The notes below the pieces were generated by a model. The model saw only the letters and a list, made by a program, of their open reading frames with translations. It was not told where the DNA came from and made no database searches. Below are positions 28,456 to 52,686 of a DNA stretch of 64,000 nt, one piece after another. A program made the translations under genes and the position numbers. Positions within the stretch are counted from its first letter, which is position 1. Each line of letters begins with the position of its first letter. This DNA is from Candidatus Omnitrophota bacterium (GTDB taxonomy: Bacteria > Omnitrophota > Gorgyraeia > 2-01-FULL-45-10): NCBI GenBank assembly GCA_041650935.1, contig JBAZKH010000001.1, forward strand, positions 487,936-551,935, given 5' to 3'.

Positions 28456-28574
28456 AGCAAGAAGCGTGCCCAAATAAAATTAATCGCTGAAAAATACAAC
28501 TGGGATGATATTGTCAAGCGTACTTATTTTTATATGCCAGTAACAGTTTAGCGTAAAGAAGTATCTCAACGAGA

Positions 28575-35191: not shown

Positions 35192-35749
35192 GTGAATTTA
35201 AAAACGGCGGCCATATCGTTATGTGTAATTGCCTGTGCGGTCTCGCCGGCTTTTTGCGGTGACGACAACGATTGGCTTAAGATCGAGACAAATTACTTTA
35301 CGATCGAGTATCAGCGTTCGGTCAATCTTCAACTTATCGCGGACAGACTGAACAGCCGGGGCTATTTTTCGTTAGGTCTTTTCGGCTCCGCCGAATCTTC
35401 TGAGGCAGCTCCGGAAGAACGAGTGGCCCGTAGAATCGATAGCCTGCTGAAAAGAGCCGAAGAACTGCTTGATATGTACCCGCCGGATTTGCGGCTAATT
35501 ATAAAGATTTTTAAAGAGGAGTCTTCGGTAGGGGAGGCGTATTTTAAGATATTCGGAACACGTCCCGGCTATGAAGCGTTCTATATTTATCAGTATAAGA
35601 CGATCTACACTTCCGAATTCGGCATATCGGATTCGGTTATTATCCATGAAATGGCGCATGCGGTCATAGATAGTTATTTTTCGGTAAATCCTCCGCCCAA
35701 AGCAAGCGAGGTCCTTGCCACATATGTAGATATGCACCTCGAAGAATAA
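35192..35749 (+). CDS. secreted protein with an HExxH motif (putative zinc-dependent peptidase-like)
   Basis: Signal peptide. ..VIIHEMAHAVID.. followed by a downstream Glu. Confidence 0.3.
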   Translation: MNLKTAAISLCVIACAVSPAFCGDDNDWLKIETNYFTIEYQRSVNLQLIADRLNSRGYFSLGLFGSAESSEAAPEERVARRIDSLLKRAEELLDMYPPDLRLIIKIFKEESSVGEAYFKIFGTRPGYEAFYIYQYKTIYTSEFGISDSVIIHEMAHAVIDSYFSVNPPPKASEVLATYVDMHLEE

Positions 35750-38500: not shown

Positions 38501-40162
38501 ATGGATTTAGTTTCGCTTCAGGAAGACCTTCATCTCAAAGAATATATAGATGTTATAAAGCGCAGGCGCGATACAGCTATCCTGTTCTTCGCAACTGTTG
38601 TTTTGGTAGTTACTATCGGCAGTTTTCTTATGCGTCCTGTCTACCGCGCCACAGCCACGCTCCTTATAGATCCCGAAAGTCCTAATGTCCTTACTACGAC
38701 CGGTATGGTCGAGATGCAGTCTCAGGATTACCTTGCGTATAAAGAATATTTTCAAAGCCAGGTCCACATAATAACATCATATGGCTTGGCTAAGAAAGCG
38801 TTTGATGACCTGGAACTGGGGAAGATGAGAAAATATGCCAGGGCAAGAGAGCCTATTAAGAAATTTTTGAAGACTATCGATGTTGAACCTGTCCGCGATA
38901 CGCGCCTCCTGAATCTAAGTGTCAGGGACAGGGACCCTGAGCTTGCCGCTAAAATAGCAAACCGAATGGCAGAGTTGTATGTAATGCGCAACCTCTACTA
39001 TATAAGCAAGAGCGAGATACTTAATCTTTTGAAGAACGAATATTTAAAACTTGAATCGCGGGAGACAGAGCTCGCGAAAGTTTACAAAGACGCGCATCCG
39101 GAGATGGTTAAAGTAAAGAATGAGATGTCGGATATCCTGGGCCGGATAGACCGCGAAAAAAAATCCATATATGATTATGACGATATCGAGCAATATCTTA
39201 AACGAGGCTCTCAGCATGAATTGTCGGGCTTTAAAGCTAACAATATAAGTATTCAGGATCCGGCCCAGAAACCGGTTTTTCCTATAAAGCCTAAAAAAAT
39301 ACTTAATATTTTCCTCTCCATCATAGTAGGGTTTTTTGGGGGGATTGGGCTTGTTTTCTTCCTGGAGTATATCGATGACAGCGCGAAGACGGTGGAAGAC
39401 GTCGCGGGCGTTATGAAATGGCCGTTCCTGATCAGCGTGCCGGATATGGGGGATGAGGGAGAGGCCAAGGCTATCGAAAAAGACCTATTAGTCAATTCCA
39501 AGCCCAAAGATCCGATATCGGAAGTGTACCGGTCATTGCGTACACGGATATTCTTTTCTTCTACAGAGGAACACCCTTTGCGCGGCATTATGATAACCAG
39601 CCCCGGGCCGCAGGAAGGGAAGACCATAACATTGTGCAACCTGGGCATCGCTATTTCCCAGATTGGGAAAAAGACGCTTTTGGTTGATGCGGATATGCGA
39701 AAACCGCGCCTGCATAACGTTTTTAAAAGAGAGAATAATGTCGGCCTGAGCAATTATCTTTCCGGGCAATGTTCGTTTGACGAAGCAGTGCAGAAGACGG
39801 GCATCGAAAATTTATCCATAGTCAGCGGCGGGATCCTTCCGCCGAACCCGTCCGAACTCCTGTCCAGCCATAAGATGATGGAGTTTATCGCGAAAGCCAA
39901 AGAAGGCTTTGATAGTATCCTGTTAGATACCCCGCCTATAGGCATAGTTACCGATGCCGCGATACTTTCAAAGGCCGTAGACGGCACTATTATGATAGTG
40001 CAGAGCGGCAAGACTTCCAAGAAGGTTCTAGCTCACATATATCATCTGCTTGTAGATGCTCAGGCGAGAATTATCGGAATAGCGCTGAATAGGGTATCGT
40101 TAACGAGCAAGGATTACTATTATTACGCATACTACCAGACGGCTGAACCAAAAACCAGATAA
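38501..40162 (+). CDS. Wzc-like polysaccharide co-polymerase / BY-tyrosine autokinase (PCP-2a)
   Basis: Wzz-like N-terminus with two TMs. Walker A ..SPGPQEGKTITLCNLG.. and Walker B ..LLVDADMRKP... C-terminal Tyr cluster ..KDYYYYAYYQ.. Confidence 0.9.
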   Translation: MDLVSLQEDLHLKEYIDVIKRRRDTAILFFATVVLVVTIGSFLMRPVYRATATLLIDPESPNVLTTTGMVEMQSQDYLAYKEYFQSQVHIITSYGLAKKAFDDLELGKMRKYARAREPIKKFLKTIDVEPVRDTRLLNLSVRDRDPELAAKIANRMAELYVMRNLYYISKSEILNLLKNEYLKLESRETELAKVYKDAHPEMVKVKNEMSDILGRIDREKKSIYDYDDIEQYLKRGSQHELSGFKANNISIQDPAQKPVFPIKPKKILNIFLSIIVGFFGGIGLVFFLEYIDDSAKTVEDVAGVMKWPFLISVPDMGDEGEAKAIEKDLLVNSKPKDPISEVYRSLRTRIFFSSTEEHPLRGIMITSPGPQEGKTITLCNLGIAISQIGKKTLLVDADMRKPRLHNVFKRENNVGLSNYLSGQCSFDEAVQKTGIENLSIVSGGILPPNPSELLSSHKMMEFIAKAKEGFDSILLDTPPIGIVTDAAILSKAVDGTIMIVQSGKTSKKVLAHIYHLLVDAQARIIGIALNRVSLTSKDYYYYAYYQTAEPKTR

Positions 40163-40241
40163 GAGTCGCCAATAAAGCCGCCGAACCAGCCTGTTTTAAG
40201 AATCCAAAAATCAATTGTGCGCGGGCGGGGAGACTTTAAGA

Positions 40242-40379
40242 TTGAAAAGTAACCTAAAGTTTTTTCTTTTACTTGCAGTTTTAATTCTTATATCGATATC
40301 CATGATAGGCTGTGTATCGATCCCGATCCCAAGCTCGATCCCGATCCCGAATTTCCCGCTAATAGGAGCGTTCCTGTAA
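40242..40379 (+). CDS. possible small lipoprotein (45 aa, TTG start) with an IPIPSSIPIPNFP tail
   Basis: Hydrophobic leader ending ..SMIGC. Weak SD. Overlaps an antisense ORF in the track. Confidence 0.2.
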   Translation: MKSNLKFFLLLAVLILISISMIGCVSIPIPSSIPIPNFPLIGAFL

Positions 40380-40564
40380 ACTCCATATAGACCAATCCCT
40401 ATAAACTTATCCATAATTCGCCTCATGGTTAACGTCCTATAATATATCTTATGTCACCTACAGGTATGGGAGAATATAGATATATATAATTGAATGCCAA
40501 TGAGTTATGGAAAATGTGGAAAAGCCTGTTGATAACTACGATTCCGCGGGTCCGCGGGCTTCCC

Positions 40565-40586
40565 TAGCCGACATTTAAACGTCGCC
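40565..40586 (+). repeat. degenerate copy of the 9413..9438 hairpin (TAGCCGACATTTAAACGTCGCC)
   Basis: 18 of 22 positions shared with 9413..9438. The stem is imperfect. Confidence 0.35.
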
Positions 40587-40649
40587 TCAGAGTATATACC
40601 AGGTGTTTTAGGGGCTTGTAGGGCTCTTTCCGGCGGTTTTTTTGGGGTA

Positions 40650-41657
40650 CTATTTGAGCTCGGATAGATACGGCAGAAGATTGTATTTCTTTAGCTTGTT
40701 ATAGAGGGTAGTTCTATTAACGCCTAATCTGGTAGCGGCCTTCTTCTTGTTTCCCCCTACTTCTTTCAGGACGTTCAGGATATAGACTTTTTCAGGTTCC
40801 TGCATGACATCTTTGAGGGATTTTAGTATATTGGCGGGTGCTGTGCTATCATGTAGTTTGCAGCGGGTCATTTTGACCGCCTCCAGGAGCATCTCTGGAA
40901 GATCGTCTTTATCTATTACGTCATCGGTATCGAGGATTACCGCGCGTTCGATTATATTTTCCAGCTCCCGTATGTTGCCCGGCCAGTTGTAGTCTATGAG
41001 TATTTGCCGCGTCTCCTCCGTAATTCCCCTTATTTTTTTCGAATTCTCTTTCGAATAAAGGTTCACGAAATGGTCCAGGAGGTGCGCTAAATCTTCTTTA
41101 TGTTCCCTGAGAGACGGCAGTTTGATAGATATTACATTGAGCCTGTAATAAAGGTCTTCCCTGAACCTTTTTTCGGCAACAGCCTTTTCGAGGTCCTGGT
41201 TGGTAGAAGCTACTATGCGGACGTCTACCTTAATGGTCTTGTGGTCGCCGACACGCTCGAACTCTTTCTCCTGCAGGACCCTTAAAAGCTTTACCTGCAT
41301 GTCCATCGAAAATGAATCTATATCATCGAGCAGGATCGTTCCGTTATCGCCCAGTTCGAAACGGCCCTTACGATCGCCTATGGCTCCGGTAAATGATCCT
41401 TTTGTGTGGCCGAATAGTTCGCTTTCGATTATCTCTTTTGGGAGCGCGCCGCAGGATATCTCTATGAAGGGTTTGTTTTTTCTTTTTTTATCGGCGTGAT
41501 GTATGGCGCGCGCGACCATTCTCTTGCCGGTCCCGCTTTCGCCTCTTAATAGGATCGTGGCTTTCGAATCGGATATGCGCTCGATCATGGAATACATGTT
41601 CTTCATGATAGAACTGCGGCCTACCAAGCCGTGATATGTTTGGGTAGAATTTGTCAT
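40650..41657 (-). CDS. sigma54-dependent transcriptional activator. AAA+ sigma54-interaction domain plus C-terminal Fis-type HTH only, with no receiver or sensor domain
   Basis: Walker A ..GESGTGKRMVARAIH... GAFTGA-type loop ..ESELFGHTKGSFTGA... Walker B ..GTILLDDID... C-terminal HTH ..AATRLGVNRTTLYNKL.. Confidence 0.9.
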   Translation of the reverse strand: MTNSTQTYHGLVGRSSIMKNMYSMIERISDSKATILLRGESGTGKRMVARAIHHADKKRKNKPFIEISCGALPKEIIESELFGHTKGSFTGAIGDRKGRFELGDNGTILLDDIDSFSMDMQVKLLRVLQEKEFERVGDHKTIKVDVRIVASTNQDLEKAVAEKRFREDLYYRLNVISIKLPSLREHKEDLAHLLDHFVNLYSKENSKKIRGITEETRQILIDYNWPGNIRELENIIERAVILDTDDVIDKDDLPEMLLEAVKMTRCKLHDSTAPANILKSLKDVMQEPEKVYILNVLKEVGGNKKKAATRLGVNRTTLYNKLKKYNLLPYLSELK

Positions 41658-41685
41658 ATATGTATGTATTTAGTCCAGGGTTTAA

Positions 41686-41713
41686 TTATAGATTATTAAT
41701 AGGAAAAGTCAAT
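41686..41713 (-). promoter_or_regulatory. near-consensus sigma70 promoter TTGACT-N16-TATAAT reading towards 41657
   Basis: Reverse complement of 41686..41713 is TTGACTTTTCCTATTAATAATCTATAAT. Confidence 0.5.
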
Positions 41714-41760
41714 ATAAAAAACTGGCTTTTTGCAACCTTACAACTAACGAAACGAAAACG

Positions 41761-41786
41761 TATGGAGGGTCTAAACCTTCCATATT
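41761..41786. repeat. palindrome-family copy TATGGAGGGT-CTAAA-CCTTCCATA in the gap between the PocR-GAF and AAA+ ORFs
   Basis: Imperfect stem with a T-rich run on the minus strand. Terminator-like for 41799..42845. Confidence 0.5.
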
Positions 41787-41798
41787 GTTTGCGGAAAT

Positions 41799-42845
41799 CT
41801 ATTTATTGGAGTGGTGACTCAGGGGGAGTAACGCGATCCCTGTCAGTCTTACGAGCTCTTTTACGATATCGATATCTTTTTCGGTGAAATCTGTCTTATT
41901 GCGGACCACGTTGAGGTTGATAACGCCATAAACCTCGTGAGTGTTTGCTTTCGAAAAGGGTATGACCATGGAAGACCGTATATAATTCCTGTTTAATTTG
42001 CCGGAAAGTTCGGCTGAGTCCTTATCCTTGGGCAGGATGATAGGGGTGGCGGTCTTGGCGGCCACACCGGCTACCCCCTCCCCCATCTTTACACCGCTCG
42101 AGCGGTCTATTATGCTCTTATCGAGTTCGGCGGCGACTTTTATCTTCAATATCCGGGTATTTTTGTCCATTATCATTACAGAGCCGGAGTCTGCATTGAG
42201 CGCGAGCACACACGAATGGAGGAGCGATTTCAGTATCTTCTCTTCGTAATAAGAGGAGAAGAGCGGATCCACCTTCACGACCTCAGGCGCTATCTCGCCC
42301 AGACGTTTCTTGTGGTAACCGGCTTGTGCCATATGCGTGAATGTGTCGTTTATAAGAGCGATTACCGAGCGGGCTTTGCCATATGAGAATACATTTATAT
42401 CCATAATGGCATTTGCAAGTTCTTCGGGTTTGATGCCGGGATCATTAAGCTCTACGGCGCACTGGAGCGCTTTTCCCCTGGATTTAAGCATGACGGGCCC
42501 GGCTATTATGTAGGCTACTATCCTGTGGCTGACGGCCCTGATGGGAATAGCGAATGAGCTGAGCCCAAGAGAACATTTTAGAGCCTGTTCTATGTCTATC
42601 GATTGATTGAGGTTGGCTATACCGGATGCCGTTGTTATGCAGTTGCGGCAGGCGGTTTTAGACTTCTGCGTTCTGGGCAGTATCTCCGCACAGAGCCGCG
42701 TAGAGCGGCTGGGCGCAGTCAATAGCTCGCCATGAGCGCTTATGGTCTTGAGAGTGATTTCGAGGACATTTGCGAATGAATCCTGGATACCCTGCCACTC
42801 TCCGAGATTTACTATCTCCCCGAGTTGAAATTCTTTTTTAAACAT
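41799..42845 (-). CDS. PocR sensory domain plus GAF domain protein (sensor half of a split sigma54 activator)
   Basis: PocR-like Cys pattern (..RLCAEIL......CRNC.. / ..LKCSLGLSSFAIPI..). GAF-like ..MIMDKNTRILKIKVAAEL... Same reading frame as 40650..41657. Confidence 0.65.
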   Translation of the reverse strand: MFKKEFQLGEIVNLGEWQGIQDSFANVLEITLKTISAHGELLTAPSRSTRLCAEILPRTQKSKTACRNCITTASGIANLNQSIDIEQALKCSLGLSSFAIPIRAVSHRIVAYIIAGPVMLKSRGKALQCAVELNDPGIKPEELANAIMDINVFSYGKARSVIALINDTFTHMAQAGYHKKRLGEIAPEVVKVDPLFSSYYEEKILKSLLHSCVLALNADSGSVMIMDKNTRILKIKVAAELDKSIIDRSSGVKMGEGVAGVAAKTATPIILPKDKDSAELSGKLNRNYIRSSMVIPFSKANTHEVYGVINLNVVRNKTDFTEKDIDIVKELVRLTGIALLPLSHHSNK

Positions 42846-42862
42846 ATATTATATATGTAGTA

Positions 42863-43732
42863 TTATTTCTTTCCCGATAACTTATCTATGTGCCGCTGTA
42901 AAAGTTTTTTCAGTTTCGGGTCACGAACTTTTTCCATCACATTTTTATATATAGCTATAACTCTTTCAGGGCTCTTCAACTTTTCGATGAAAATCGGTTC
43001 AAGATACGGCAGGAGCCTTCTAAACGTCATAGAGCCGGGGTATCTGTTTAATGTATGCTCGATCGCGCGGCCGGCCGCCTCATAATGTTTCGAATTCATA
43101 TTAGTTTGGATGAGCAGCAGCGCCGCGGCGTAGCCTAACCGCTTACCCGAATGCTCCTTTTCCATCTTTTCATAAAATGCCGCCGCATCCGCGTAAGCTT
43201 TATCTACCGCGGCAGTCTCCCCTTTCGTCTCATAGTGCTTTACGATATATAGAGGGGCCTCCATGCCGAGCTGGGTATAGGGGTACCGGTCTCTCAGCGC
43301 TATAAATTCCGCGAAAGCCTTATCCCATTTCCCCATCCTCTCATAGGTAAGGGCTTTTAAAAACTGGGCCGTGCTCATGACGGCCGCGTTCTCCTTGTAT
43401 TCCGTCATTATGGACTTTATGAGGGACTGCGCCTCGCCGTATTTTTTGTTGGAGATATAGAATTCCGCCAGTGTGATAGCGGCCGTCTTCGTTACGGCCG
43501 CATCCGGATATTTCTTTATAAGCGTCAGCAGGTCCTTTTCGACAGCGGCAAGCAGGCGCGGAGGCGTTACATCAGGGTTCCTCGCTATGACGGAGTTTAA
43601 TTTCATGGCGCGGTAGATGAGCTTTTCCGCGGCGTAATCTTTACCGGGAGAGAATGAAGATACTAAAGAAAACGCCGCCCAGACGACGATCAGTATCAGT
43701 ACCATGTATAGGATTATCTTTTTCATCTTCAT
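42863..43732 (-). CDS. N-terminally anchored TPR-repeat protein (PrsT/YbgF-like)
   Basis: One TM. Multiple 34-aa helical repeats with the W/LG/Y/A/F/A/P pattern. Confidence 0.55.
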   Translation of the reverse strand: MKMKKIILYMVLILIVVWAAFSLVSSFSPGKDYAAEKLIYRAMKLNSVIARNPDVTPPRLLAAVEKDLLTLIKKYPDAAVTKTAAITLAEFYISNKKYGEAQSLIKSIMTEYKENAAVMSTAQFLKALTYERMGKWDKAFAEFIALRDRYPYTQLGMEAPLYIVKHYETKGETAAVDKAYADAAAFYEKMEKEHSGKRLGYAAALLLIQTNMNSKHYEAAGRAIEHTLNRYPGSMTFRRLLPYLEPIFIEKLKSPERVIAIYKNVMEKVRDPKLKKLLQRHIDKLSGKK

Positions 43733-43757
43733 TTCCGGTGCCTCGGCAGGCTCGGCA

Positions 43758-44636
43758 TTAACCCTGAGCTTTTGTCGAAGGTTGATGGTCCAGGAGCCAT
43801 TTAGATACGCATATAATTACGAAACAATCCAGGAATACGGTGACTATTACGCCAAGGAGTGTTGTGCACAGGGTAATCTCCGGGAAGGTTTTGCCGGCGA
43901 GTTCCGCCGAGAAACTCTTCAATAGTATGATCGGCAGGTAAGCGGCGAGCGGTAAAAAGATCAGGTTGAAGATGACGGCAAAATTACGGAATCCCAAACG
44001 CACGCTTTTAAAAATAGCTTTTACCAGGCGCGTTTTTTCTATGACTATGACGGGCACGGTCAGTATCAGCAGTGCCTGTATGATGACGGTCGTTAATAAG
44101 ATAAAGATGGTGAGTGATATGCTATAGACCTGCTGTGGTATCTGAGGGAGTATCTTTGTCGTGATATGAAGCGCCTTTGCAAAGATGAACATATCTATCT
44201 TCTGCAGGAGCGTTGTGACAATGACCATTACCAGCGCGTATGCAGCCAGGGACGGATAGGTCTTAACGGTGTTTTTCAATATCGCGTCTCTTTTGACCGG
44301 AAGATGCGCCTTTATATTCTTGAATATATTGACAGATGTGGCTGTTAACGCTATCCCGATAAGTATATAAATCGCCGTCTGCGCGAAATAAAATAATCCG
44401 GGCAAAGTTATCAGGTTGGCCGGATAATGAAGGAACGCCTCTCCGAAGAATTTTTTGATAATGGGCCCGGCTATTATCGAAAATGGCCATCTGGCCGAGA
44501 AGAAGATGATCTCCAGCGATAACGTCTCAAGGAATGCTATGACGATGAACGGCAGTAAGACCACCGGGTTCCTGGCGATGGTGTTAAATGAATCGGCCCA
44601 ATTTTTTCGTATATTATATTTTTTCATAATTAGCAA
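43758..44636 (-). CDS. hypothetical polytopic membrane protein
   Basis: ~8 hydrophobic helices. No motif recognised. Confidence 0.4.
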   Translation of the reverse strand: MLIMKKYNIRKNWADSFNTIARNPVVLLPFIVIAFLETLSLEIIFFSARWPFSIIAGPIIKKFFGEAFLHYPANLITLPGLFYFAQTAIYILIGIALTATSVNIFKNIKAHLPVKRDAILKNTVKTYPSLAAYALVMVIVTTLLQKIDMFIFAKALHITTKILPQIPQQVYSISLTIFILLTTVIIQALLILTVPVIVIEKTRLVKAIFKSVRLGFRNFAVIFNLIFLPLAAYLPIILLKSFSAELAGKTFPEITLCTTLLGVIVTVFLDCFVIICVSKWLLDHQPSTKAQG

Positions 44637-44848
44637 ATCATTTTATCAGCAATATGAAAAATGTAAAGAAAAAAGGGGTAAAACAATTTGCTTTACCCCT
44701 TTTTATAAAATATCATTATATTTGCCAAGCCTTTTATAATATGAGTCCGGTGGGAGAACATAAAACTTTTAAGGCTCTATGCTCTCACCACATAAGCATG
44801 CTTACTGGTTCAAGCAAAGCCCATGCCGTTTTTGTAAAACGACAAAGG

Positions 44849-45493
44849 CTATGCTTTGAACTTTTTGATGATTGTCCTGCCTGCCATTCCAACCAGACCA
44901 AGACCTAATAGAGCCATACTTGCCGGCTCTGGCGCTGGTCCAGGAAGGGACTCGTTCTGACTGGTGCCGCCTGCTGTTATGTTGCCACTTACCCATGTTG
45001 GCGACTCAAGAGCGGTAAACCATAGAACATAGCTTGTGCTGCCTCCTGGGATAGCGTTGGCTCCGCTAAAATCCCAATAGGCGCAATTTAAGCCCGTACC
45101 GTAATACCCGTTAATCGGGGCGACTGTGCCAGACAAGTCGTAGGTTGTAGTAAACAAGTCGTCGAGGTTGAATGAGTTAGTGAAGGCTCCGTCTGTAATA
45201 TGGCCGCCGTTCTCATTCAAAACCCCAAACATAGTAAGCGCCTGGTCATTGGATAAACCGTCGACGTTCTTTATCTGATAAAGATACGTATAGTCGGTCT
45301 TTGTCCCGAGCGGATTGGTGGCATTACCTGGTTCATAGACAGCCCACCAGACATCCGCGTTAAAATACCGCGTTGTCCCTATGTATTTCTGGAAGTTTGT
45401 GCAACCATCGATTAACGGTGTTGCTTCAGCGTTTAACGTCGTAACGACGCATGCCGCGAAGAGCACCATTACAATTAATGCAATTTTCTTCAT
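44849..45493 (-). CDS. PEP-CTERM sorting-domain secreted protein
   Basis: Signal peptide. C-terminal ..PAPEPASMALLGLGLVGMAGRTIIKKFKA (PEP motif, TM, basic tail). Confidence 0.8.
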   Translation of the reverse strand: MKKIALIVMVLFAACVVTTLNAEATPLIDGCTNFQKYIGTTRYFNADVWWAVYEPGNATNPLGTKTDYTYLYQIKNVDGLSNDQALTMFGVLNENGGHITDGAFTNSFNLDDLFTTTYDLSGTVAPINGYYGTGLNCAYWDFSGANAIPGGSTSYVLWFTALESPTWVSGNITAGGTSQNESLPGPAPEPASMALLGLGLVGMAGRTIIKKFKA

Positions 45494-45513
45494 TTATTCA
45501 CCCCCTTCCTTTG

Positions 45514-45570
45514 TAGACTGTAGACCATAGACCTTTAATGCTTTGGTCTTCGGTCTCTGGTCTTCGGTCT
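45514..45570. repeat. GGTCT/TAGAC-word low-complexity repeat block (TAGACTGTAGACCATAGACC ... GGTCTTCGGTCTCTGGTCTTCGGTCT) between the two PEP-CTERM genes
   Basis: Read directly. A related motif recurs at 60565..60600 inside a CDS. Confidence 0.6.
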
Positions 45571-46162
45571 ATTTTATACCTTTCTTTCTTCTGAAACCTG
45601 CTAAGCCTGTGATTCCCAATCCCAAAAGCGAAAGAGTCGCGGGTTCCGGAGTAGCGTATTCGACTATGTATCCCTGGTAGTATTTACTGCCGGCCGGAGA
45701 ACCTGTGCCGTAAATGGAATTGCTCGAATTGCCGCTTAAGTCATTCCACTTTCCATTGGTCCAGAACTGGATGTTATCATCGATGTATCCGAAGGAGGAA
45801 TTATCGTTGGGCTCTCCGCCGTTCCAATTGTCCCAAGACCATGTTTCTCCGGTAACCCAACCCCAGCCGCCTGACGGTTCGGCTCCATTTGGATCCTGTA
45901 TGGCACCCAGCCAATAGTATGATGGGTTGCCGAGGTTTGACCAAACCCAGTCATTCTCTGCCTGGCTTGTAAGGACCGCCAAATATCCGTTTGCGCCGCC
46001 ATACGAAAGAGCTTCAGCGTTGGCCTTCGCGACATTCCAGTCGTATGTACCGCTGATAGCTTCGTAATAGTGCCCTGTCAAAGGACAATATATAGGCGAA
46101 GCGAAAACAGCACCGCAAGAGGATAAAAGTAATATTATTGCAATAAGGCCTGCCTTCCGCAT
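45569..46162 (-). CDS. C-type-lectin-fold domain protein with a PEP-CTERM anchor
   Basis: Signal peptide. CTLD-like ..YLAVLTSQAENDWV......YYWLGA.D......W.WV.GE.WS.DNW..GEPND... C-terminal ..TPEPATLSLLGLGITGLAGFRRKKG. Confidence 0.65.
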   Translation of the reverse strand: MRKAGLIAIILLLSSCGAVFASPIYCPLTGHYYEAISGTYDWNVAKANAEALSYGGANGYLAVLTSQAENDWVWSNLGNPSYYWLGAIQDPNGAEPSGGWGWVTGETWSWDNWNGGEPNDNSSFGYIDDNIQFWTNGKWNDLSGNSSNSIYGTGSPAGSKYYQGYIVEYATPEPATLSLLGLGITGLAGFRRKKGIK

Positions 46163-46189
46163 TTTTATAGCCTCCTTTTCATATTTTTC

Positions 46190-47068
46190 CTACCTGGCGC
46201 CTCTTCCCTGAAATGAGACGACTATGGTACGTAATAGTATCCTTACATCCACCATGAGACACATCTCCCTTATATATAGGAGGTCGTACTTGACCTTCTT
46301 CTTAACATCCTGGATAGTTTCATCGTATTTATGCCATACCTGAGCGAGGCCTGTTATACCGGGCTTTACTTCCAGCCGCCTGCGATAATCCGGTATCTTT
46401 TCGCTCAACTGTTCAACGAATACCGGCCTTTCAGGCCGCGGTCCGACTATACTCATCTCGCCTTTCAAAACATTAAATAACTGAGGCAGTTCGTCCAAAT
46501 GAAGCTTCCTGATCACAGACCCATGCTTTATGAGACGCGAATCATTCTCTTTTGCCCATACGGGGCCGGTAAGTTTTTCAGCGTCCAGCCTCATAGTCCG
46601 CATCTTATAGATATTGAACATATTCCCCTTCCACCCTACCCTCTCCTGGCTGAATATTACGGGCCCGGGTGAAACGATTTTAATATAGATAGCGGTCAAG
46701 GCCATTACGGGAGAAGCTATGACAATTCCGATCGATGCTACGAGGATATCGAATATCCGTTTAAATTCGGTAAAGCGCTTACGCGCGAATCTGACGATAC
46801 AGCCGAATATTCCGGTCGATACTAGCGCCACAGTGCCCGGCTCCGGGGCCGACACAGGGATTACCTTGCCTGTCTGGGCATAGCCGAAACCGATGAAGAC
46901 AAGCGAAAGGAACGCTACGAAAGCAAGGATCGTCGAATAATTCAAAAGCTTTTTAGCTTCGTCTTTTTTGGGAACAGCGCGCGCATATCGCTGGATGGCA
47001 AGATATATATCGAGATCCTTTTTTATCTCGCCTAGCGTCATCACGAATGTCCGGATGAATTTTTTCAT
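46190..47068 (-). CDS. bacterial sugar transferase (polyprenyl-phosphate glycosyl-1-phosphate transferase). Exosortase-system-associated type
   Basis: ..FKRIFDILVASIGIVIASPVMAL....SPGPVIFSQERVGWKG..F..YKMRTM......DSR....G..IRK.HLDELPQLFNVLKGEMSIVGPRP. Confidence 0.9.
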   Translation of the reverse strand: MKKFIRTFVMTLGEIKKDLDIYLAIQRYARAVPKKDEAKKLLNYSTILAFVAFLSLVFIGFGYAQTGKVIPVSAPEPGTVALVSTGIFGCIVRFARKRFTEFKRIFDILVASIGIVIASPVMALTAIYIKIVSPGPVIFSQERVGWKGNMFNIYKMRTMRLDAEKLTGPVWAKENDSRLIKHGSVIRKLHLDELPQLFNVLKGEMSIVGPRPERPVFVEQLSEKIPDYRRRLEVKPGITGLAQVWHKYDETIQDVKKKVKYDLLYIREMCLMVDVRILLRTIVVSFQGRGAR

Positions 47069-47188
47069 ATACTTCTATATAAGCATCATTCGTGCCAAGT
47101 CATGAGCGCGAGCAAAAATATTTTATTTTTTGATGATTATAAATATTTGTGAATCAATGGGTTACGGCTGGATATTTTTGCTAATTAG

Positions 47189-47217
47189 TGACAATTCATG
47201 ACAAACTATGACAGTCA
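47189..47217. promoter_or_regulatory. three TGACA direct repeats with exact 10-bp phasing (TGACAattcaTGACAaactaTGACAgtca) upstream of the sugar-transferase/PEP-CTERM operon
   Basis: Read directly. Lies ~120-150 bp upstream of the start at 47068. Confidence 0.4.
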
Positions 47218-47308
47218 TTGATAGGTGTTTCGGAAAAAATGGACATTAATAAGCGGTGTGTTGAGATGGGTGAACATGAGACATTGGGCAGGTTTTGCTG
47301 AAGCATGG

Positions 47309-47332
47309 TAGGGCAGGTTTCAACCTGCCCTA
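47309..47332. repeat. palindrome-family copy TAGGGCAGGTT-TC-AACCTGCCCTA overlapping the EpsI stop codon
   Basis: Perfect 11-bp stem. A partial GGGCAGGTTTT copy sits at 47286. Confidence 0.6.
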
Positions 47333-47965
47333 TATTGTCATGGAGTCGACTATCTTTACAGTTTCGCTGAGAAAAGATTTCAGCATCGCAAGCGCCTGCT
47401 TCTCGTCGCTTCTTATCGGTATCGCGACGCGGATCGTAGCGCCCGGAACGCGCTTGCCGAATATCTGATGGATGGCGAGATATGCCTGTTGCAGATAAAA
47501 ATTGCTGGTATACAATTTTCCGGCCTTGTATGCATAGAGCACTAGCTCCTTAAAATCGCCCTTTTCAGCCAGCATCTTGTTTGCCGAAAATTTATACTTT
47601 CCGGATTCGATATTCTCATTCTGTTTGTCCACTATAGCAAAGCCGCCTCCTGCTATACAGACTTCGGGCGGATGGAATACAGATCTATTAGTCTCGGAAT
47701 ATATAATAAATAAACTTAATTTATCGTTTGACTGGTTGACGTATTCGCGAGCGATCAAGTTCCTTGTCTCAAGGATTTGATATTCTTTTTCCGTTATCTC
47801 TAAGTCCGTTCCTTTCCACTTCCCTATCGTGTGCGGAAAACTATGTATGTCGGTCGTGTCGCGCATAGTCTTCTCCTGCGAAAATAACCGAAGGGAAAAG
47901 AAACTCGCCGCTAATAAAAGGACGACCAGCAACATGTAGCCTAAAATGTTTTTATCTGACTTCAT
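47330..47965 (-). CDS. EpsI-family exosortase-associated periplasmic protein
   Basis: N-terminal TM. ..IGKWKG.D.......L...N...R.Y.......L.IIYS.......HPPEVCIAGGGF.. matching the EpsI signature. The start is chosen at MKSDKN, so the ORF-track start at 48082 is likely an over-extension. Confidence 0.7.
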   Translation of the reverse strand: MKSDKNILGYMLLVVLLLAASFFSLRLFSQEKTMRDTTDIHSFPHTIGKWKGTDLEITEKEYQILETRNLIAREYVNQSNDKLSLFIIYSETNRSVFHPPEVCIAGGGFAIVDKQNENIESGKYKFSANKMLAEKGDFKELVLYAYKAGKLYTSNFYLQQAYLAIHQIFGKRVPGATIRVAIPIRSDEKQALAMLKSFLSETVKIVDSMTI

Positions 47966-48791
47966 TTTTTGTTTCCAATACTCTTGATACGGCGAATAGC
48001 CCCACAAAAGCGAATGCAAAGACCAGGAAACCGGTAAAGTCGTGGAATAACCCCATCGCGACTTTTCCCCCATATAGGTCATTTACCACAGCGACCATGA
48101 CGATCCTCGTGACATTTGCCGCGAGCGCTATGGGAACGGATGATAGGAATAGTATCGATTTCCTAACGTAGGAAATTTTCATCGAATACGCGAAGAGCAG
48201 GCCGAGGGTCAAGAGCGATATGAGCGAACGCAGTCCACTGCACGGGGCGGCGACCTCGATATGCGAATTCGGCATCCTTATGATACTGCCGTCTTGTATC
48301 GACGGAAATCCGATCCTGTTTAATATAAAAGTAGAAGCCTGCGCCGCTATCAATTTTAATTTTACCGTCAGGTTCCCTATCAATACGAGCGGTAATGGCA
48401 CCATGGCAAGAAGAAAAAATACCGGAAATGTCAGGCTGCGTACCATCTCTTTCCCGAAGAAAAAGAGAATAAGCCCGTATAAAACCAGTATGAACGAGAA
48501 ACCGGATACGAAATAGACTTTAAGCGCGGCGGATACGATATGGATCAGGAGCCCGAGAGCCACGATCCACAGCCCTGCGAGTGTCCCGGATATCGTTATC
48601 TTTTTCAGCGCCTCCCTTCTCTGCCAGACAATGAATAAGGAGATGATGGGGATAAGGAACCCATGTCCATAGTATGATTCGGCCGCCATCCACCTGTCGA
48701 CCATCCATCGCAGGGTCGGAAGGTACGCGATAAATAAAAGTGCGGCGCATGACGCGAATTTCAAAATGGCGTTTCGTTTAGAATTCATCAT
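47952..48791 (-). CDS. exosortase (EpsH/Xrt family)
   Basis: 8 TM helices. Motifs ..YGHGFLIP.., ..VAAPCSGLRSL.. and ..ANVTRIV.. (catalytic Cys/Arg/Asn triad regions). Confidence 0.9.
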   Translation of the reverse strand: MMNSKRNAILKFASCAALLFIAYLPTLRWMVDRWMAAESYYGHGFLIPIISLFIVWQRREALKKITISGTLAGLWIVALGLLIHIVSAALKVYFVSGFSFILVLYGLILFFFGKEMVRSLTFPVFFLLAMVPLPLVLIGNLTVKLKLIAAQASTFILNRIGFPSIQDGSIIRMPNSHIEVAAPCSGLRSLISLLTLGLLFAYSMKISYVRKSILFLSSVPIALAANVTRIVMVAVVNDLYGGKVAMGLFHDFTGFLVFAFAFVGLFAVSRVLETKNEVR

Positions 48792-48797: not shown

Positions 48798-49619
48798 TCA
48801 TTTGATGAGGCTGTTTCCAAAAACATCTCTGATACTTTTTAAGATAATCGGTTTTTCCAGCAATTTTAGTTCACTTTTATCCTGGAGGAATCTTTCAACG
48901 TCTTTCTTTGCGGCGCTAAAATCGACGCTCTCTACTCTTTCGGTCAAAAAATCCATGATATTGTTTTCATCGATTTTGTAATCGCGGCCCTGCGTTTGCG
49001 TGATAGCGTTGTTCAGTAATTGATAATTAGGTTTGACTTTCTTACCAAGATACCAAAGCAGATCATAAAAATCTCTTCCCTTGACGTATTTTCTGAAAAA
49101 ACACGCATGTAATTTAGCGGCGTATAAAGACGCCAGATCGAAATGGGAAATATTCAGGGCGTATAGTTTATTCACCAGGGTTTTTTCAAGATGCCAGCCG
49201 CACGGAGAATTGGAATCAGCCTTGATTTTAATCGAAAGCGTCTGGCTCGCTAAAGGCGAGAGCCCTGTTGATTTTAACAGTCCCGGAAATTTCAGCATGC
49301 TGCTTCGAACTGTCTTCTTCACAGCTGGTTTAGTTTCTATTTTTAATCCATTCAAGTCGAACTCACGCTCGAGGACCCGGACGATGTCCGTGAAATCGTA
49401 TCCCTTGGCGTCAAAAACAGAAAAATCCAAATCCTCGGAAAATCTTCTCATATCATAAAGAAACCTTAACGCCGTCCCGCCGACAAAAGCCAGATTATTA
49501 AAATAACCTTTATCCTGTATAAATTTTAATGTTAATAGTTGAAGAGTCTCCCGCAATTTATTGGTCTTGGCTAGGTTATCTCTTTCATCGGCAATCTGCT
49601 GCCGCAGTAATTCGATCAT
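48798..49619 (-). CDS. AbiEii/AbiGii-family nucleotidyltransferase toxin (type IV TA)
   Basis: ..NLAFVGGTALRFLYDMRRFSEDLDFSV.. motif. ~270 aa. Confidence 0.75.
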   Translation of the reverse strand: MIELLRQQIADERDNLAKTNKLRETLQLLTLKFIQDKGYFNNLAFVGGTALRFLYDMRRFSEDLDFSVFDAKGYDFTDIVRVLEREFDLNGLKIETKPAVKKTVRSSMLKFPGLLKSTGLSPLASQTLSIKIKADSNSPCGWHLEKTLVNKLYALNISHFDLASLYAAKLHACFFRKYVKGRDFYDLLWYLGKKVKPNYQLLNNAITQTQGRDYKIDENNIMDFLTERVESVDFSAAKKDVERFLQDKSELKLLEKPIILKSIRDVFGNSLIK

Positions 49620-49900
49620 GCGCTACGCTCCTCCTTAATAAACTCACAAAAGGACTTACAGATGCTCGTCAATTTTCTATTATTGAATACTTTGGCAAAT
49701 TCCGACACTTTCTTTGTTTTTAGCAATTTCGTATTTTGAAAGCGATATGACCCCTCGAAAATTTCCCGATCCTCCTTTTTGAACTTTTCCAGATTTAAAT
49801 AAATAAAATCTACTATGGCCTTTTCGGGCTGGGCCATTAAAAAAAGAAGCCCCGCCTCGTCTTTACAAGCCTCAAATCCTCTAAATGCCTCCGGTATCAT
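49616..49900 (-). CDS. short AbiEi-like antitoxin partner (C-terminal-domain-only form)
   Basis: 94 aa. 4-nt ATGA overlap with the toxin gene. ..EKAIVDFIYL.. resembles the AbiEi C-terminal region. Confidence 0.45.
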   Translation of the reverse strand: MIPEAFRGFEACKDEAGLLFLMAQPEKAIVDFIYLNLEKFKKEDREIFEGSYRFQNTKLLKTKKVSEFAKVFNNRKLTSICKSFCEFIKEERSA

Positions 49901-49928: not shown

Positions 49929-50669
49929 TCATTTTCTTATAGTCCAGAAGTCGTCGGCGAGCGTCTCGAGATATTCGAACGGCATGGTAAAATAGCCTTT
50001 CATCCCCCATGTCTCGCCCCAGGAATTCCTCACCGCGAATCGACTCTTTTTTAAATCGTACCCTATTGCCATAACGGCATGCCCGCCCAAAGCTGTCTCG
50101 CCTTTTTTTGGCATGTTGACAACGCCCGTTTTTACTACTGCGTCAGATTCGAAACTTTCATAAACGGTAAAACCAAAAACAAAAGGATATCCTTCCGCAA
50201 GGCAGGTAAGCATCTCGCGTAATGTTTCTATGCGGTGGTACGATTCTATAGTCCTCTTCTTTGCTTCCGCGTAACAACGTATCGTCGGCCGGACGGCAAA
50301 CTTATTTATAAGATACGGCCATATCGATTCACGGCACGAGCCGGAATTCTTCAGCGTCTTTATGCCGTCCCGGAGCATGGCGCCGGAATCGTATTCGATA
50401 GTATCGATAAGCGCGCGTTCGTTGTAATATATAAAAAGCCGGCTCACATCTTCATAAAGGGAATCTATCTTGTTGTCCAAAAACTCCAGGTTGCCCGCGA
50501 GAGCCTGGGCCGTACAGCTTCCCAGGTTCCCCTGATCCTCTATCTTCGAGCAGTGCGCGCGCAGGTCCACCGCCTGCGGCAGTTTCACGACCGGCCGTAT
50601 GGCCTTGTAAAGATAGTCTCTCTGGTCCGGTATGTCCGGCACCCAGCCGTATACGCGTTTCAATTTCAT
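49929..50669 (-). CDS. papain-like (C1 family) cysteine peptidase with no signal peptide
   Basis: ..QGNLGSCTAQALAG.. (Gln/Cys), ..GGHAVMAIGYD.. (His), ..NSWGETWGMKGYF.. (Asn-Ser-Trp). Confidence 0.85.
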   Translation of the reverse strand: MKLKRVYGWVPDIPDQRDYLYKAIRPVVKLPQAVDLRAHCSKIEDQGNLGSCTAQALAGNLEFLDNKIDSLYEDVSRLFIYYNERALIDTIEYDSGAMLRDGIKTLKNSGSCRESIWPYLINKFAVRPTIRCYAEAKKRTIESYHRIETLREMLTCLAEGYPFVFGFTVYESFESDAVVKTGVVNMPKKGETALGGHAVMAIGYDLKKSRFAVRNSWGETWGMKGYFTMPFEYLETLADDFWTIRK

Positions 50670-50688
50670 CCCACCCTCCCCTGCAATT

Positions 50689-52686
50689 TTATCTTTCTTT
50701 GCTGATGTATGCTAAAAAGTGCCCGCTGGAACGATAGTTCTGATTGAAATGCTTTCGGTCGCTCAATCTGGCGTCATTCATCCCGCGCTCGAACAGCTTC
50801 TTACCCATCTCCAGATAATCTTTTCTCTGGTAGCCGCTTATCTTGTACCCGTATCCGAAGGCATGGACCGTAAGCATATTGAGGTCCGGATGGCCTTCAT
50901 TTCTTGAAGCATCGCATGTAAGGTATATGAACGAGTCTCCATCAGGCGCGAGGCAGTCTTTCATAAGCCAATTGAGCGCCATAAAGATCGATTCTTTCGC
51001 AATATTGCTATTGGTGAGCTGATGATATTTTACTATGGCTTCGAGAAGTAAGCCGGTCATGAAAGGCGAGCCGCCATACTCATCTTTCCTTGCCCCCTCT
51101 TCCGGATCATGCGAATACAAGTTATGGATGAATCCACCCTTCTCCGGCCATTCCTTCTGGGTTCTGTAGAGATTTTTCATCATTTCACTGGCAAAGTTAA
51201 GATATTCCTTATCGCCGGTGAGCTCGTAGTATTCCAGTGCACCTAGAAATGGGAATGCCATTTCTCTCTCTGTCCAGAAACGCGAATCGCCCCGCTTCAA
51301 ATAAGCCTTTTTAGGATTGACATTTTTCTTAAGGTATTCCGCCATATAACCGGCAACGAGCAAAGACTTTTCATCGCCCGTCAATAGATAGTCGTCTATC
51401 AATGCGCTCACATATATGTATCTAGTTTGTTTCTGGACTACGGCACGTCCTCTTTCCGGACCATCCTGGACTATCTGGTCATCCCTATAATGTACCAGTT
51501 CCTTGCGCGCGGATTGAAAATATTCGTCGTTACCGCCGCGAACATAAATCTGATAGAATACATGCGGAGTGCTGTAGTAGCCATCTTTGCTAACATCGTT
51601 TGTCCACTCGATTTTTTCCAGCTTAGGAAAATTATCCTCTATGTTCTGATCATACTTTTGGTACTCGCTACTGTCTATAGGAACTTGCTCACCTGTTATT
51701 TGTGAATCACACGACCACATTGGCGGCATTAGTAAGAAGCCTTCCGGTAATACCCAGTCGACTTTCACTAGACGCAACACTTCGGTTGTTCTGGGGTTGC
51801 CCCACTTTACAAGCACCCGTTTATAACTGTGTTCCACTTTCATCGGGAACTGAACCAACACGGATCTTATAGAGCCATCTTGAGGCCATCGTGCGAGCAC
51901 TTTGGATGCAATGGAGATTTCTTTCCCTTCTGCGTCAAATATAGCGACATTCTTCTCGTCGAAAATATTCCCCGGCGCAAATGGTATTCCAGTCGAAACC
52001 AGGATTTCTATTTTTTTAGGAGCGGTGAGATTGGCGACGTTGGCCTTAACGATTCCGTTGGCCGGAAGTGTGTCTTTAGTCATTTTCGGTTCAAATACCT
52101 CTTTAATCTCGATAGGGGTGGATACACTAGCGCTATGTACCTGTGTGCTTACGCGAGGTTGCTGATTCTCAAGTCTCATATTGTCAAAGTAGAGTATAGT
52201 CTTCTCTTTCGGATCGTCCAGATACAGAACAACCCTGTAAATGTTTGCCGCGTCTATCGATTTTGCTATCCTCTGCCTTGGTATATTTATGTTATTCATT
52301 CCTGGCTTGAGTGGTACCGGTATGTTTACCCTTTGCTTCTTTTCATCGTCCAGCCTTACCGTGAAGCTTATCGTCTTGTTCTGTGGATTAAAAATATCGA
52401 GTCGCAGGTTGTCATACTGTCCCCAATCGTGCGCTAATTTTTTTGTATTAATGCTGGGATATTCATCTACAGGATATGCCACTTTCAACGAATGTTTACC
52501 CTCCGTAACGTGCTCGGTAGACAGATTTAGTGAAAAACCAGTCTCGGGTGAGATATCCCATTTCTTGATGTTCTCAAAAGCGCACATAATTCCGGAGTTG
52601 ATGTCTTCATTCGATACTATGCTGCAACCGTACAAACAGGTAGCAAATGTAAATGTTATCAAAAAAGTGCAAAATTTATAGCTCAT
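50689..52686 (-). CDS. lipoprotein with an N-terminal beta-sandwich and a C-terminal alpha/alpha-toroid-like region (polysaccharide lyase/heparinase-II/III-like, tentative)
   Basis: Lipobox ..LYGCS. Large soluble body. The helical repeat region ..YLLTGDEKSL...EYYELTGDKEYL.. is suggestive of an (alpha/alpha)6 fold. Confidence 0.35.
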   Translation of the reverse strand: MSYKFCTFLITFTFATCLYGCSIVSNEDINSGIMCAFENIKKWDISPETGFSLNLSTEHVTEGKHSLKVAYPVDEYPSINTKKLAHDWGQYDNLRLDIFNPQNKTISFTVRLDDEKKQRVNIPVPLKPGMNNINIPRQRIAKSIDAANIYRVVLYLDDPKEKTILYFDNMRLENQQPRVSTQVHSASVSTPIEIKEVFEPKMTKDTLPANGIVKANVANLTAPKKIEILVSTGIPFAPGNIFDEKNVAIFDAEGKEISIASKVLARWPQDGSIRSVLVQFPMKVEHSYKRVLVKWGNPRTTEVLRLVKVDWVLPEGFLLMPPMWSCDSQITGEQVPIDSSEYQKYDQNIEDNFPKLEKIEWTNDVSKDGYYSTPHVFYQIYVRGGNDEYFQSARKELVHYRDDQIVQDGPERGRAVVQKQTRYIYVSALIDDYLLTGDEKSLLVAGYMAEYLKKNVNPKKAYLKRGDSRFWTEREMAFPFLGALEYYELTGDKEYLNFASEMMKNLYRTQKEWPEKGGFIHNLYSHDPEEGARKDEYGGSPFMTGLLLEAIVKYHQLTNSNIAKESIFMALNWLMKDCLAPDGDSFIYLTCDASRNEGHPDLNMLTVHAFGYGYKISGYQRKDYLEMGKKLFERGMNDARLSDRKHFNQNYRSSGHFLAYISKER

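Follow-up and report, generated by a model that had tools for sequence, protein, structure and literature searches.

A candidate sigma-54 switch with a receiverless activator and a neighboring PocR-GAF protein at an exosortase locus of the Omnitrophota

In this study, we have analyzed an exosortase locus (positions 40650 to 48791) in a 64,000-nucleotide stretch of DNA from a Candidatus Omnitrophota bacterium (GenBank assembly GCA_041650935.1, contig JBAZKH010000001.1); this whole stretch is referred to here as the window. The locus is the downstream end of a long minus-strand gene run within a 64-kb polysaccharide locus, and it encodes an exosortase, EpsI, a priming sugar transferase, two PEP-CTERM cargo proteins, a membrane protein, a tetratricopeptide repeat (TPR) protein, a stand-alone PocR-GAF protein, and a sigma-54 enhancer-binding protein (EBP) that lacks a receiver domain. 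A -24/-12 promoter with an upstream candidate enhancer precedes the transferase gene and recurs in related genomes, as does the gene order, and sequence comparison places the loss of the receiver in the window's own small clade. Based on these observations, we propose with moderate confidence that the exosortase locus carries a sigma-54 switch typical of its phylum, in which the EBP would turn on the transferase and cargo genes and the PocR-GAF protein would serve in trans as its sensor.

Promoter and candidate enhancer of the transferase-cargo operon

The promoter lies within the 261-nt gap between the EpsI and sugar transferase genes, and it combines a GG at -24, a GC at -12, and a distal enhancer-like repeat, as is characteristic of sigma-54 promoters. 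A scan of species-representative genomes returned 27 related loci (designated by L numbers), all of them from Omnitrophota or from mislabelled relatives, and a scored promoter scan of all loci found the same -24/-12 element at the orthologous position in L002, L003, L005, L006, L009, L012, L016, L017, and L024. Alignment of approximately 230 nt from ten genomes resolved five conserved blocks with 40 invariant columns, whereas the flanking proteins are merely 50 to 70% identical. The central block contains ATGACTGTCATAGTTTGTCAT. The exact repeat TGTCAT-N4-TGTCAT is found at a single place in the window and at a single place in each of five other loci, at a constant distance of 115 to 116 nt upstream of the -24 element; block 4, between this candidate enhancer and the promoter, may be a bending site or a site for an accessory protein. 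Furthermore, L019 carries a second copy of the enhancer and sigma-54 promoter (11004 to 12569), downstream of its PocR-GAF gene and ahead of two tandem PEP-CTERM genes. The recurrence of this architecture in nine related loci of the Omnitrophota gives good support to sigma-54 control.

The initial annotation had postulated metabolite-gated control of both exosortase cargo and exopolysaccharide (EPS) production and had called for -24/-12 promoters upstream of the PEP-CTERM, exosortase, and EPS operons. Such a promoter is present ahead of the transferase-cargo operon, in the window and in the nine loci; however, the scored scan found none upstream of the exosortase gene in the window or its relatives, and no such promoter precedes the EPS glycosyltransferase genes. 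Judged by its position, the promoter appears to serve the priming transferase and the cargo, and the exosortase and EPS glycosyltransferase genes are not under it. The postulate therefore holds for sigma-54 control of the cargo, with a phosphorelay unlikely and ligand gating probable, but it does not extend to the EPS genes.

A terminator-like hairpin with a 16-bp stem stands at the end of this operon. Two other sites were considered and rejected as promoters: a weaker -24/-12-like site (CGGCATGGGCTTTGCT, 44813 to 44828, minus strand) between the last cargo gene and the hairpin, the position of which is not conserved elsewhere, and a sigma-54-like site at 28456 to 28471 that faces no gene. After the hairpin, a sigma-70-like promoter (44640 to 44667) precedes the membrane protein gene. 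Just downstream of the sigma-54 promoters, a conserved peptide of approximately 35 to 45 amino acids (MKKxx..IDVYLxIQRYAR; 46940 to 47068 on the minus strand in the window) was observed; it is an in-frame fusion to the transferase in the window and in L002, a separate small open reading frame (ORF) in five other loci, and absent from three, and in L003, L005, L006, L009, and L016 it starts 13 nt past the promoter 16-mer. It could function as a leader peptide or as a small protein, and its spacing from the promoter implies an mRNA that is nearly leaderless.

The receiverless activator and its PocR-GAF neighbor

Domains were assigned by Pfam and NCBIfam scans. The EBP has the features of bacterial enhancer-binding proteins, namely, an AAA+ domain with a GAFTGA-type loop (GSFTGA), Walker motifs (Walker A, GESGTGKR), the REDLYYRL motif, arginine fingers, and a helix-turn-helix (HTH) region, with scores of 229 bits for PF00158 and 54 bits for HTH_8; from these motifs the protein looks functional. 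Its HTH region (NRTTLYNKL) is almost invariant across the family, and a near-invariant recognition helix region fits the conserved enhancer as its binding site.

Mapping of the window proteins onto the related loci gave a recurring order of exosortase, EpsI, short sugar transferase, two to four PEP-CTERM genes, membrane protein, TPR protein, a gene of approximately 100 codons, EBP, and PocR-GAF. The EBP gene directly adjoins the PocR-GAF gene in the 23 related loci in which the flank is present, and the gap from EBP stop to PocR-GAF start was 0 to 37 nt in 19 of the 22 relatives measured. In the window's clade, the PocR-GAF gene has shifted from downstream to upstream of the EBP gene. By this shared gene order, the regulatory cassette is conserved across the phylum; the literature that we searched contained no description of an exosortase regulator in Omnitrophota.

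Among the 120 EBPs closest to that of the window in a large protein collection, 108 carry a PF00072 receiver, and only four are short: the window EBP, its 87%-identical relative, and two others. The EBPs of the relatives are 442 to 474 amino acids long, with an N-terminal extension recognized by Pfam as a receiver (54 to 63 bits). The receiverless EBP is thus, by sequence comparison, a derived state of the window's small clade and not the general state of the system, as had first been assumed. In a neighbor-joining tree of the AAA+/HTH cores, the window sequence and L031 formed one clade and L020 and L023 another, separate clade among receiver-bearing sequences, and therefore the receiver appears to have been lost twice independently, each time together with the product of the gene of approximately 100 codons. 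This gene lies between the TPR and EBP genes in 18 loci (for example, L002 8246 to 8560) and is missing exactly where the receiver is missing, i.e., in the window, L020, and L023. Its product can be aligned with the dimerization and histidine phosphotransfer (DHp) hairpin of EnvZ and HK853, and it also shows a weak match to the corresponding region of AtoS. In place of the phospho-histidine stands N, S, D, Y, or E, and the catalytic domain is missing. The receivers have also diverged: in 117 of them, the position of CheY D12 is acidic in 9 and that of D13 in 39, and K109 is replaced by arginine in 66. In sequence, the DHp-like stub and the receiver of the relatives look like a fossil two-component pair without phosphate transfer. 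No pairing of a degenerate receiver and a DHp-like stub with a sigma-54 EBP and an exosortase locus was found in the literature searched.

The window itself contains no histidine kinase or receiver, in agreement with the initial annotation. Pfam detected no HisKA, HATPase, or Response_reg domain in any ORF of at least 150 amino acids in the 64 kb; a purpose-built receiver hidden Markov model and two kinase queries gave no kinase or receiver among six-frame window ORFs of at least 50 amino acids; and none was found in the approximately 1.7 kb (left) and 4.6 kb (right) recovered past the window ends, where the initial annotation had suggested looking for a PrsK/PrsR pair and no such pair was present. 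A small protein encoded at 34636 to 35181 (plus strand) consists of a membrane segment and a HAMP domain without a kinase part; it was considered as a kinase remnant and rejected, as it has neither a DHp nor a catalytic domain. It is followed by a gene for a small lipoprotein with a HEMAH metalloprotease-like motif (35192 to 35749, plus strand). Both genes lie upstream of FecR-like, porin, Poly_export, and Wzz-kinase genes, and homologues of these two proteins are encoded a few kilobases from PocR-GAF in L005 and L016.

Since the window EBP has no receiver that could be phosphorylated, a phosphorelay is unlikely in this genome. We consider it very improbable that a PrsK/PrsR-like pair or an orphan kinase encoded elsewhere controls the locus by classical phosphotransfer. 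Only approximately 70 kb of the genome was seen, and the relatives keep the phospho-acceptor aspartate in 88% of their receivers, both of which leave some room for this explanation; however, in addition to the missing receiver and the absence of a kinase from the window and recovered flanks, the full-length relatives score below the PrsR cutoff (368 versus 502.6), the kinase remnant linked to them has no histidine or catalytic domain, and PrsK, PrsR, and PrsT have been reported only from Proteobacteria (PMC1569441).

The PocR-GAF protein is 100% identical to a protein from a Candidatus Omnitrophota metagenome-assembled genome (MAG), encoded on a 710-kb contig. It belongs to a group of 208 relatives, and all 120 of those listed consist of PocR and GAF only and are approximately 340 to 350 amino acids long. 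Sixty columns are invariant over 26 members, concentrated in the GAF domain and in the inter-domain helix, which bears the invariant motif YHKKRLGEIAPEV..DPLF..YYEEKIL; the window protein is intact and keeps every family-invariant residue. A structure model (mean predicted local distance difference test score [pLDDT], 76.6) consists of a PAS/GAF-like lobe, a long helix, and a GAF domain, and among the structures retrieved by a fold search with it are tandem-GAF sensors and the Nlh2 GAF domain, which comes from an EBP. The model supports a sensor role for the protein.

It is hardly credible that the PocR-GAF and EBP genes represent one gene split by an assembly error, a frameshift, or decay to a pseudogene. 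Many activators, NifA and NorR among them, are single GAF-AAA+-HTH chains, and a fusion would therefore seem natural; however, the two genes are separated by a stop codon, lie in different frames, and flank a 141-nt AT-rich spacer that holds the conserved promoter TTGACT-16-TATAAT. A fusion to an AAA+ domain is absent from all 120 listed PocR-GAF relatives, and in most genomes PocR-GAF lies downstream of the EBP gene. Furthermore, the same gene order, with an EBP of 333 amino acids, is found in an independent MAG (80 to 87% identity), and the window layout also appears in an independent assembly of another read set; the layout is therefore not an assembly artifact. On these grounds, we rejected a single split or frameshifted gene.

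As the window EBP has no regulatory domain of its own, and PocR-GAF has remained its neighbor through rearrangement and two receiver losses, we take PocR-GAF to be the trans sensor of the EBP; from gene neighborhoods, it is a constant partner of the EBP and probably a trans-acting ligand sensor. The initial proposal that PocR-GAF sits in the place of the kinase and receiver is not supported, because most relatives carry a receiver-bearing EBP and, downstream of it, PocR-GAF as well. A different explanation, possible but rather unlikely in our judgment, is that the receiverless EBP is constitutively active, so that the operon is on whenever the EBP is made, and that PocR-GAF has another job, such as control of the membrane/TPR pair or of an enzyme. 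Truncated activators of the NtrC1/DctD type are constitutively active. In keeping with this explanation, the EBP starts right at its AAA+ core and has its own near-consensus sigma-70 promoter, PocR-GAF has no recognizable output or DNA-binding domain, and any interaction between the two proteins is suggested by sequence context only. Conversely, PocR-GAF has stayed beside the EBP as described and has kept all of its family-invariant residues, the gap of 0 to 37 nt in the relatives suggests cotranslated partners, and enhancer-dependent promoters normally serve tight, signal-dependent control.

It can be envisioned that, in the switch with PocR-GAF as sensor, the EBP would be made from its own sigma-70 promoter, bind the TGTCAT-repeat enhancer, and drive ATP-dependent opening of the sigma-54 promoter, thereby turning on three genes, the priming transferase and the two PEP-CTERM cargo genes, as far as the hairpin. 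The adjacent cytoplasmic PocR-GAF protein, a two-lobed ligand sensor without an output domain, would most likely set EBP activity in trans: it would bind the AAA+ ring and release it upon ligand binding, or engage it upon ligand binding, and so act as an inhibitor or an activator. The ancestral cassette, still present in most Omnitrophota, would have comprised the membrane protein, the TPR protein, the histidine-less DHp-like protein, a receiver-AAA+-HTH EBP, and PocR-GAF, with the stub and receiver being lost together at least twice, once in the window's lineage, where PocR-GAF also moved ahead of the EBP. Binding of the EBP to the enhancer, control of the EBP by PocR-GAF, and the absence of phosphotransfer are what we infer here; the fixed promoter and enhancer architecture supports the first of these steps, and synteny suggests the second.

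Several observations weigh against this proposal. The link between PocR-GAF and the EBP is their adjacency. The Walker B motif of the EBP, LLDDID (41316 to 41333; residues 109 to 114), has Asp-Asp in place of the usual Asp-Glu, and it is invariant in all 21 family members compared. The phospho-acceptor aspartate is kept in 103 of 117 receivers (88%), and an unlinked kinase in the relatives is possible. Matches resembling TGGCAC-N5-TTGC are not enriched across the window (34 found versus 42 expected in shuffled sequence), and therefore the promoter call is based on position and cross-genome conservation. The end of the promoter is only 14 nt from the annotated ATG at 47068, which implies either a nearly leaderless mRNA or another start codon. 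Finally, rpoN is not within the 64 kb plus approximately 6 kb seen, whereas one contig of the genome alone spans at least 710 kb.

The sorting unit and the priming transferase

The exosortase, cargo, and EpsI features place the locus among PEP-CTERM/exosortase sorting systems. The Cys/Arg/His signature of the exosortase is intact (CSGLRS, NVTR, and FHDFTG), and the protein scores below the cutoffs of named subtypes (188.4 versus 208 for XrtA, TIGR03109; 202 versus 425 for XrtW). Each cargo protein combines a signal peptide with a PEP motif, a membrane helix, and a basic tail at the C terminus; PF07589 is above its cutoff in both, and one of the two also passes TIGR02595.

The initial annotation regarded the TPR protein as a stand-in for PrsT, an assignment that our data do not support: the protein, 289 amino acids long, has an N-terminal anchor without a lipobox cysteine, its NCBIfam matches at an E value of ≤0.01 do not include TIGR02917 (PrsT), and a TPR protein also accompanies the transferase and cargo genes in a locus with neither an EBP nor PocR-GAF nearby. 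In that locus, from an Elusimicrobiota genome (L032, GCA_042580445.1, 10001 to 15308), a transferase bearing a PEP motif, a PEP-CTERM protein, a homologue of the membrane protein (25% identity; E = 1e-23), and a TPR protein are followed by Poly_export and Wzz-kinase genes, and no EBP, PocR-GAF, or -24/-12 site lies nearby. This arrangement suggests that the genes for transferase, cargo, membrane protein, and TPR protein form a conserved unit of four that does not depend on the regulator. L019 has an additional membrane/TPR pair directly after its exosortase and EpsI genes. Because of these two pairs, one without a regulator and the other next to exosortase-EpsI, the membrane and TPR proteins are more likely to be accessories of the sorting or glycan unit than regulators, as far as gene neighborhoods indicate.

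The opposite possibility, that the two proteins are the true sensors and would pass envelope or EPS status to PocR-GAF and the EBP in the manner of PspB/C, PspA, and PspF, draws on analogy and appears unlikely to us, somewhat more so than a constitutive EBP. Membrane protein, TPR protein, stub (where present), EBP, and PocR-GAF do form one conserved block in more than 15 loci, and in its AAA+ plus HTH architecture the EBP is like PspF. However, in L032 the pair follows a PEP-bearing transferase and cargo where there is no EBP, PocR-GAF, or -24/-12 site, and the second pair in L019, directly after Xrt-EpsI, points to a role in sorting or glycan handling.

The first gene of the proposed regulon is itself unusual. 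The catalytic domain of the transferase (Bac_transf, residues 103 to 286; TIGR03025 at 292.2, just under the cutoff of 295.6) is preceded by an N-terminal extension. It is built from a signal-peptide-like helix with YAQ at its end, followed by a short loop and then by APEPG, a membrane helix, and RFARKRF. The last three resemble a PEP-CTERM sorting signal, and this element lies directly N-terminal to the reentrant helix of the catalytic domain. It is kept in the Omnitrophota orthologues, and a search over 1.8 billion proteins found it in 15 of the 150 best cluster representatives. Some of the PEP-bearing representatives have a domain of 130 to 250 amino acids ahead of the motif, and one of them, from Elusimicrobiota, has a domain of 170 amino acids ahead of the element. 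The N-terminal 133 amino acids alone, used as a query, gave a single match. No connection between PEP-CTERM and phosphoglycosyl transferases was found in the literature searched. By its sequence, the element could serve to link the exosortase to the glycan-priming enzyme, as a site for either docking or cleavage. We tentatively combine these elements into a larger picture, which we regard as possible rather than probable, of a two-component cassette that has abandoned phosphotransfer, with a PocR-GAF-gated EBP and, as its first target, a PEP-bearing priming transferase coupled to the exosortase. In this picture, the window genome would represent the final stage, at which the kinase stub and the receiver have been dropped altogether.

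Relation to known systems, locus content, and significance

The genes listed by the initial annotation (exosortase, EpsI, transferase, two cargo proteins, TPR protein, PocR-GAF, and EBP) were recovered by Pfam and NCBIfam at the coordinates given there, all on the minus strand (Table 1). Two genes are additions to that list, namely, the one for the conserved polytopic membrane protein and an AbiEii-like gene next to the exosortase gene.

Table 1. Features of the exosortase locus and its regulatory region
Feature	Position	Strand	Evidence or description
Exosortase, 279 aa	47952..48791	-	PF09721 Exosortase_EpsH 223 bits; TIGR02602 169.8, above cutoff of 105.6
EpsI, separate gene	47330..47965	-	DUF3485 124 bits; TIGR02914 89, above cutoff of 42.8
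Upstream block 1, TGTyCAC-N6-CTCAACAC	47258..47276	-	Invariant columns in 10-genome alignment
Upstream block 2, ATGTCCAwTTTT	47234..47246	-	10-genome alignment
Upstream block 3, candidate enhancer	47188..47227	-	CACCTATCAATGACTGTCATAGTTTGTCAT, third GTCAC one helical turn on, palindrome ATGACTGTCAT
Upstream block 4, CGTAAC..TTTATT..	47136..47166	-	10-genome alignment
Predicted -24/-12 promoter, TGGCACGAATGATGCT (TGGCACG-N4-TGCT)	47082..47097	-	Position and conservation at orthologous site
Short priming sugar transferase (phosphoglycosyl transferase, 292 aa), gene 1 of predicted sigma-54 operon	46190..47068	-	Bac_transf 219 bits
Internal PEP-CTERM-like element, residues 74-99 (APEPG, membrane helix, RFARKRF)	46772..46849	-	PF07589 E = 0.0085, below cutoff
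PEP-CTERM cargo with C-type lectin domain	45569..46162	-	Lectin_C 29.7 versus 22.6; PEP-CTERM
Second PEP-CTERM cargo protein	44849..45493	-	Pfam/NCBIfam
Terminator-like hairpin, 16-bp stem, end of transferase-cargo operon	44670..44704	-	
Polytopic membrane protein, conserved, family-less by Pfam/NCBIfam	43758..44636	-	Always paired with TPR gene
Membrane-anchored TPR protein, 289 aa	42863..43732	-	TPR repeats and N-terminal membrane anchor
Stand-alone PocR+GAF protein, 348 aa	41799..42845	-	PF10114 79.9, above 23.9; PF13185 41.7, above 28.6
Predicted sigma-70 type promoter of EBP gene, TTGACT-16-TATAAT	41685..41712	-	Both hexamers invariant in L031 (second MAG)
Receiverless sigma-54 EBP, 335 aa	40650..41657	-	Sigma54_activat from residue 11, AAA_lid, HTH_8; no domain N-terminal of these

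The initial annotation took PrsK, PrsR, and PrsT to be the classical control of PEP-CTERM systems and judged the module described here to be different. The second point is borne out, and the first applies to Proteobacteria: the Prs proteins were defined by phylogenetic profiling in 13 proteobacterial species, and the authors of that work remarked that the regulators in other phyla must be different ones, without proposing which (Haft et al. 2006, PMC1569441). The absence of Prs is expected, since Prs is defined only for Proteobacteria and the exosortase falls under the XrtA cutoff. No HisKA or HATPase domain that would indicate PrsK (TIGR02916) is encoded in the window; against a PrsR cutoff of 502.6 (TIGR02915), the window EBP scored 327.8 and the full-length L002 relative 368.2; and TIGR02917 does not recognize the TPR protein. 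Likewise, TIGR03109, TIGR03013, TIGR03007, TIGR03018, TIGR03027, and TIGR03016 all score below their cutoffs, so the locus is not an XrtA-type system, and an assignment of the EPS export genes as XrtA or XrtB specific was rejected, all accessory models being below cutoff.

As in the Prs system, a Fis-type sigma-54 activator and a TPR protein are encoded in the exosortase/EPS neighborhood, and a -24/-12 promoter with an upstream activator site would drive PEP-CTERM cargo. Unlike the Prs system, there is no PrsK in the 64-kb window and flanks, and the EBP of this genome lacks a receiver; the TPR protein is one-third the size of PrsT and is not a lipoprotein; the first gene of the predicted regulon is a priming sugar transferase; and PocR-GAF is an obligatory neighbor. 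The PrsR motif ends in TTTACA and lies approximately 63 nt from the sigma-54 site (PMC1569441), whereas the candidate enhancer described here is a TGTCAT repeat approximately 116 nt upstream. In Aquincola, pepA is RpoN1 dependent and the EPS genes are not (PMC9850573), and the predicted sigma-54 promoter of the window is likewise placed on cargo and not on EPS genes.

Other functional parallels are found among activators outside the Prs system. PspF and HrpR/S lack a regulatory domain and are controlled in trans, by PspA and HrpV, respectively. Like PspF, the window EBP consists of AAA+ and HTH only (approximately 330 amino acids), and its likely controller is encoded separately. Unlike PspF, it is not a member of the TIGR02974 family (255.5 versus a cutoff of 443.6), its proposed partner is a PocR+GAF ligand sensor rather than a PspA/ESCRT-III-like protein, and its predicted targets are surface protein and glycan genes; the annotated window contains no PspA-like gene. 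NifA, FhlA, and Nlh2 are GAF-regulated activators, and NifL is a separate sensor that acts on NifA. NorR is also a GAF-regulated sigma-54 activator (PMC2941729). The locus resembles these systems in the association of a GAF domain with a sigma-54 AAA+ activator and in that a separate sensor protein would act on the activator, as NifL does on NifA; it differs in that the GAF domain is on another polypeptide, behind PocR, the EBPs of most relatives add a degenerate receiver, and the sensor does not have the PAS/kinase-like architecture of NifL.

Pseudo-receivers and degenerate remnants of two-component systems are a known phenomenon. The receivers of the relatives, usually without an acidic Mg pocket, and their DHp-like partner, without the histidine and catalytic domain, fit this pattern; their pairing with a sigma-54 EBP and an exosortase locus had no counterpart in the literature searched, and both remnants are gone in the window. 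The system described here may thus be regarded as Prs-like in function, with sigma-54 on cargo, and as PspF/PspA-like in the window, and it is a member of neither family.

Several features of the surrounding DNA were also noted. An AbiEii-type nucleotidyltransferase toxin gene (48798 to 49619, minus strand) lies 7 bp upstream of the exosortase gene, within the EPS gene array, and a 94-codon ORF (49616 to 49900, minus strand) overlaps its start; L012 has a copy with 66% identity adjoining its exosortase-EpsI pair, oriented the other way. The sole other obvious signaling protein in the window is a fusion of a CHASE2 sensor with a SpoIIE/PP2C phosphatase (5995 to 7911, plus strand). Among the glycosyltransferase genes lie those for a Fic/DOC protein, a papain-family C1 peptidase, and a GH127-like protein (29458 to 30294 and 49929 to 52686). 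Two very large, presumably secreted proteins are encoded at 10201 to 17100 (plus strand), one of 1,370 amino acids with Golvesin_C, beta-helix, and FG-GAP domains and the other of 896 amino acids with three CarboxypepD_reg domains and FG-GAP. The cumulative GC skew reaches its maximum at approximately 40000 to 44000, where plus-strand genes give way to minus-strand genes, the convergent pair being at 40162 and 40650; this peak could be a coding-strand effect or a replication terminus.

In conclusion, this locus provides, for an entire uncultured phylum, a candidate exosortase regulator cassette whose promoter and enhancer are defined. The cassette occurs in full, without receiver and stub, and rearranged as in the window, and this natural series of forms shows which parts are dispensable. 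The PEP-CTERM-like element of the priming transferase recurs in unrelated lineages and offers a handle on how exosortase sorting is linked to polysaccharide synthesis. If the transferase does carry a sorting signal, this glycan-starting enzyme would be a docking partner or a cleavage substrate of the exosortase, the sorting of cargo would be physically coupled to glycan priming, and the PEP-bearing transferase would point toward the acceptor of exosortase-sorted proteins.

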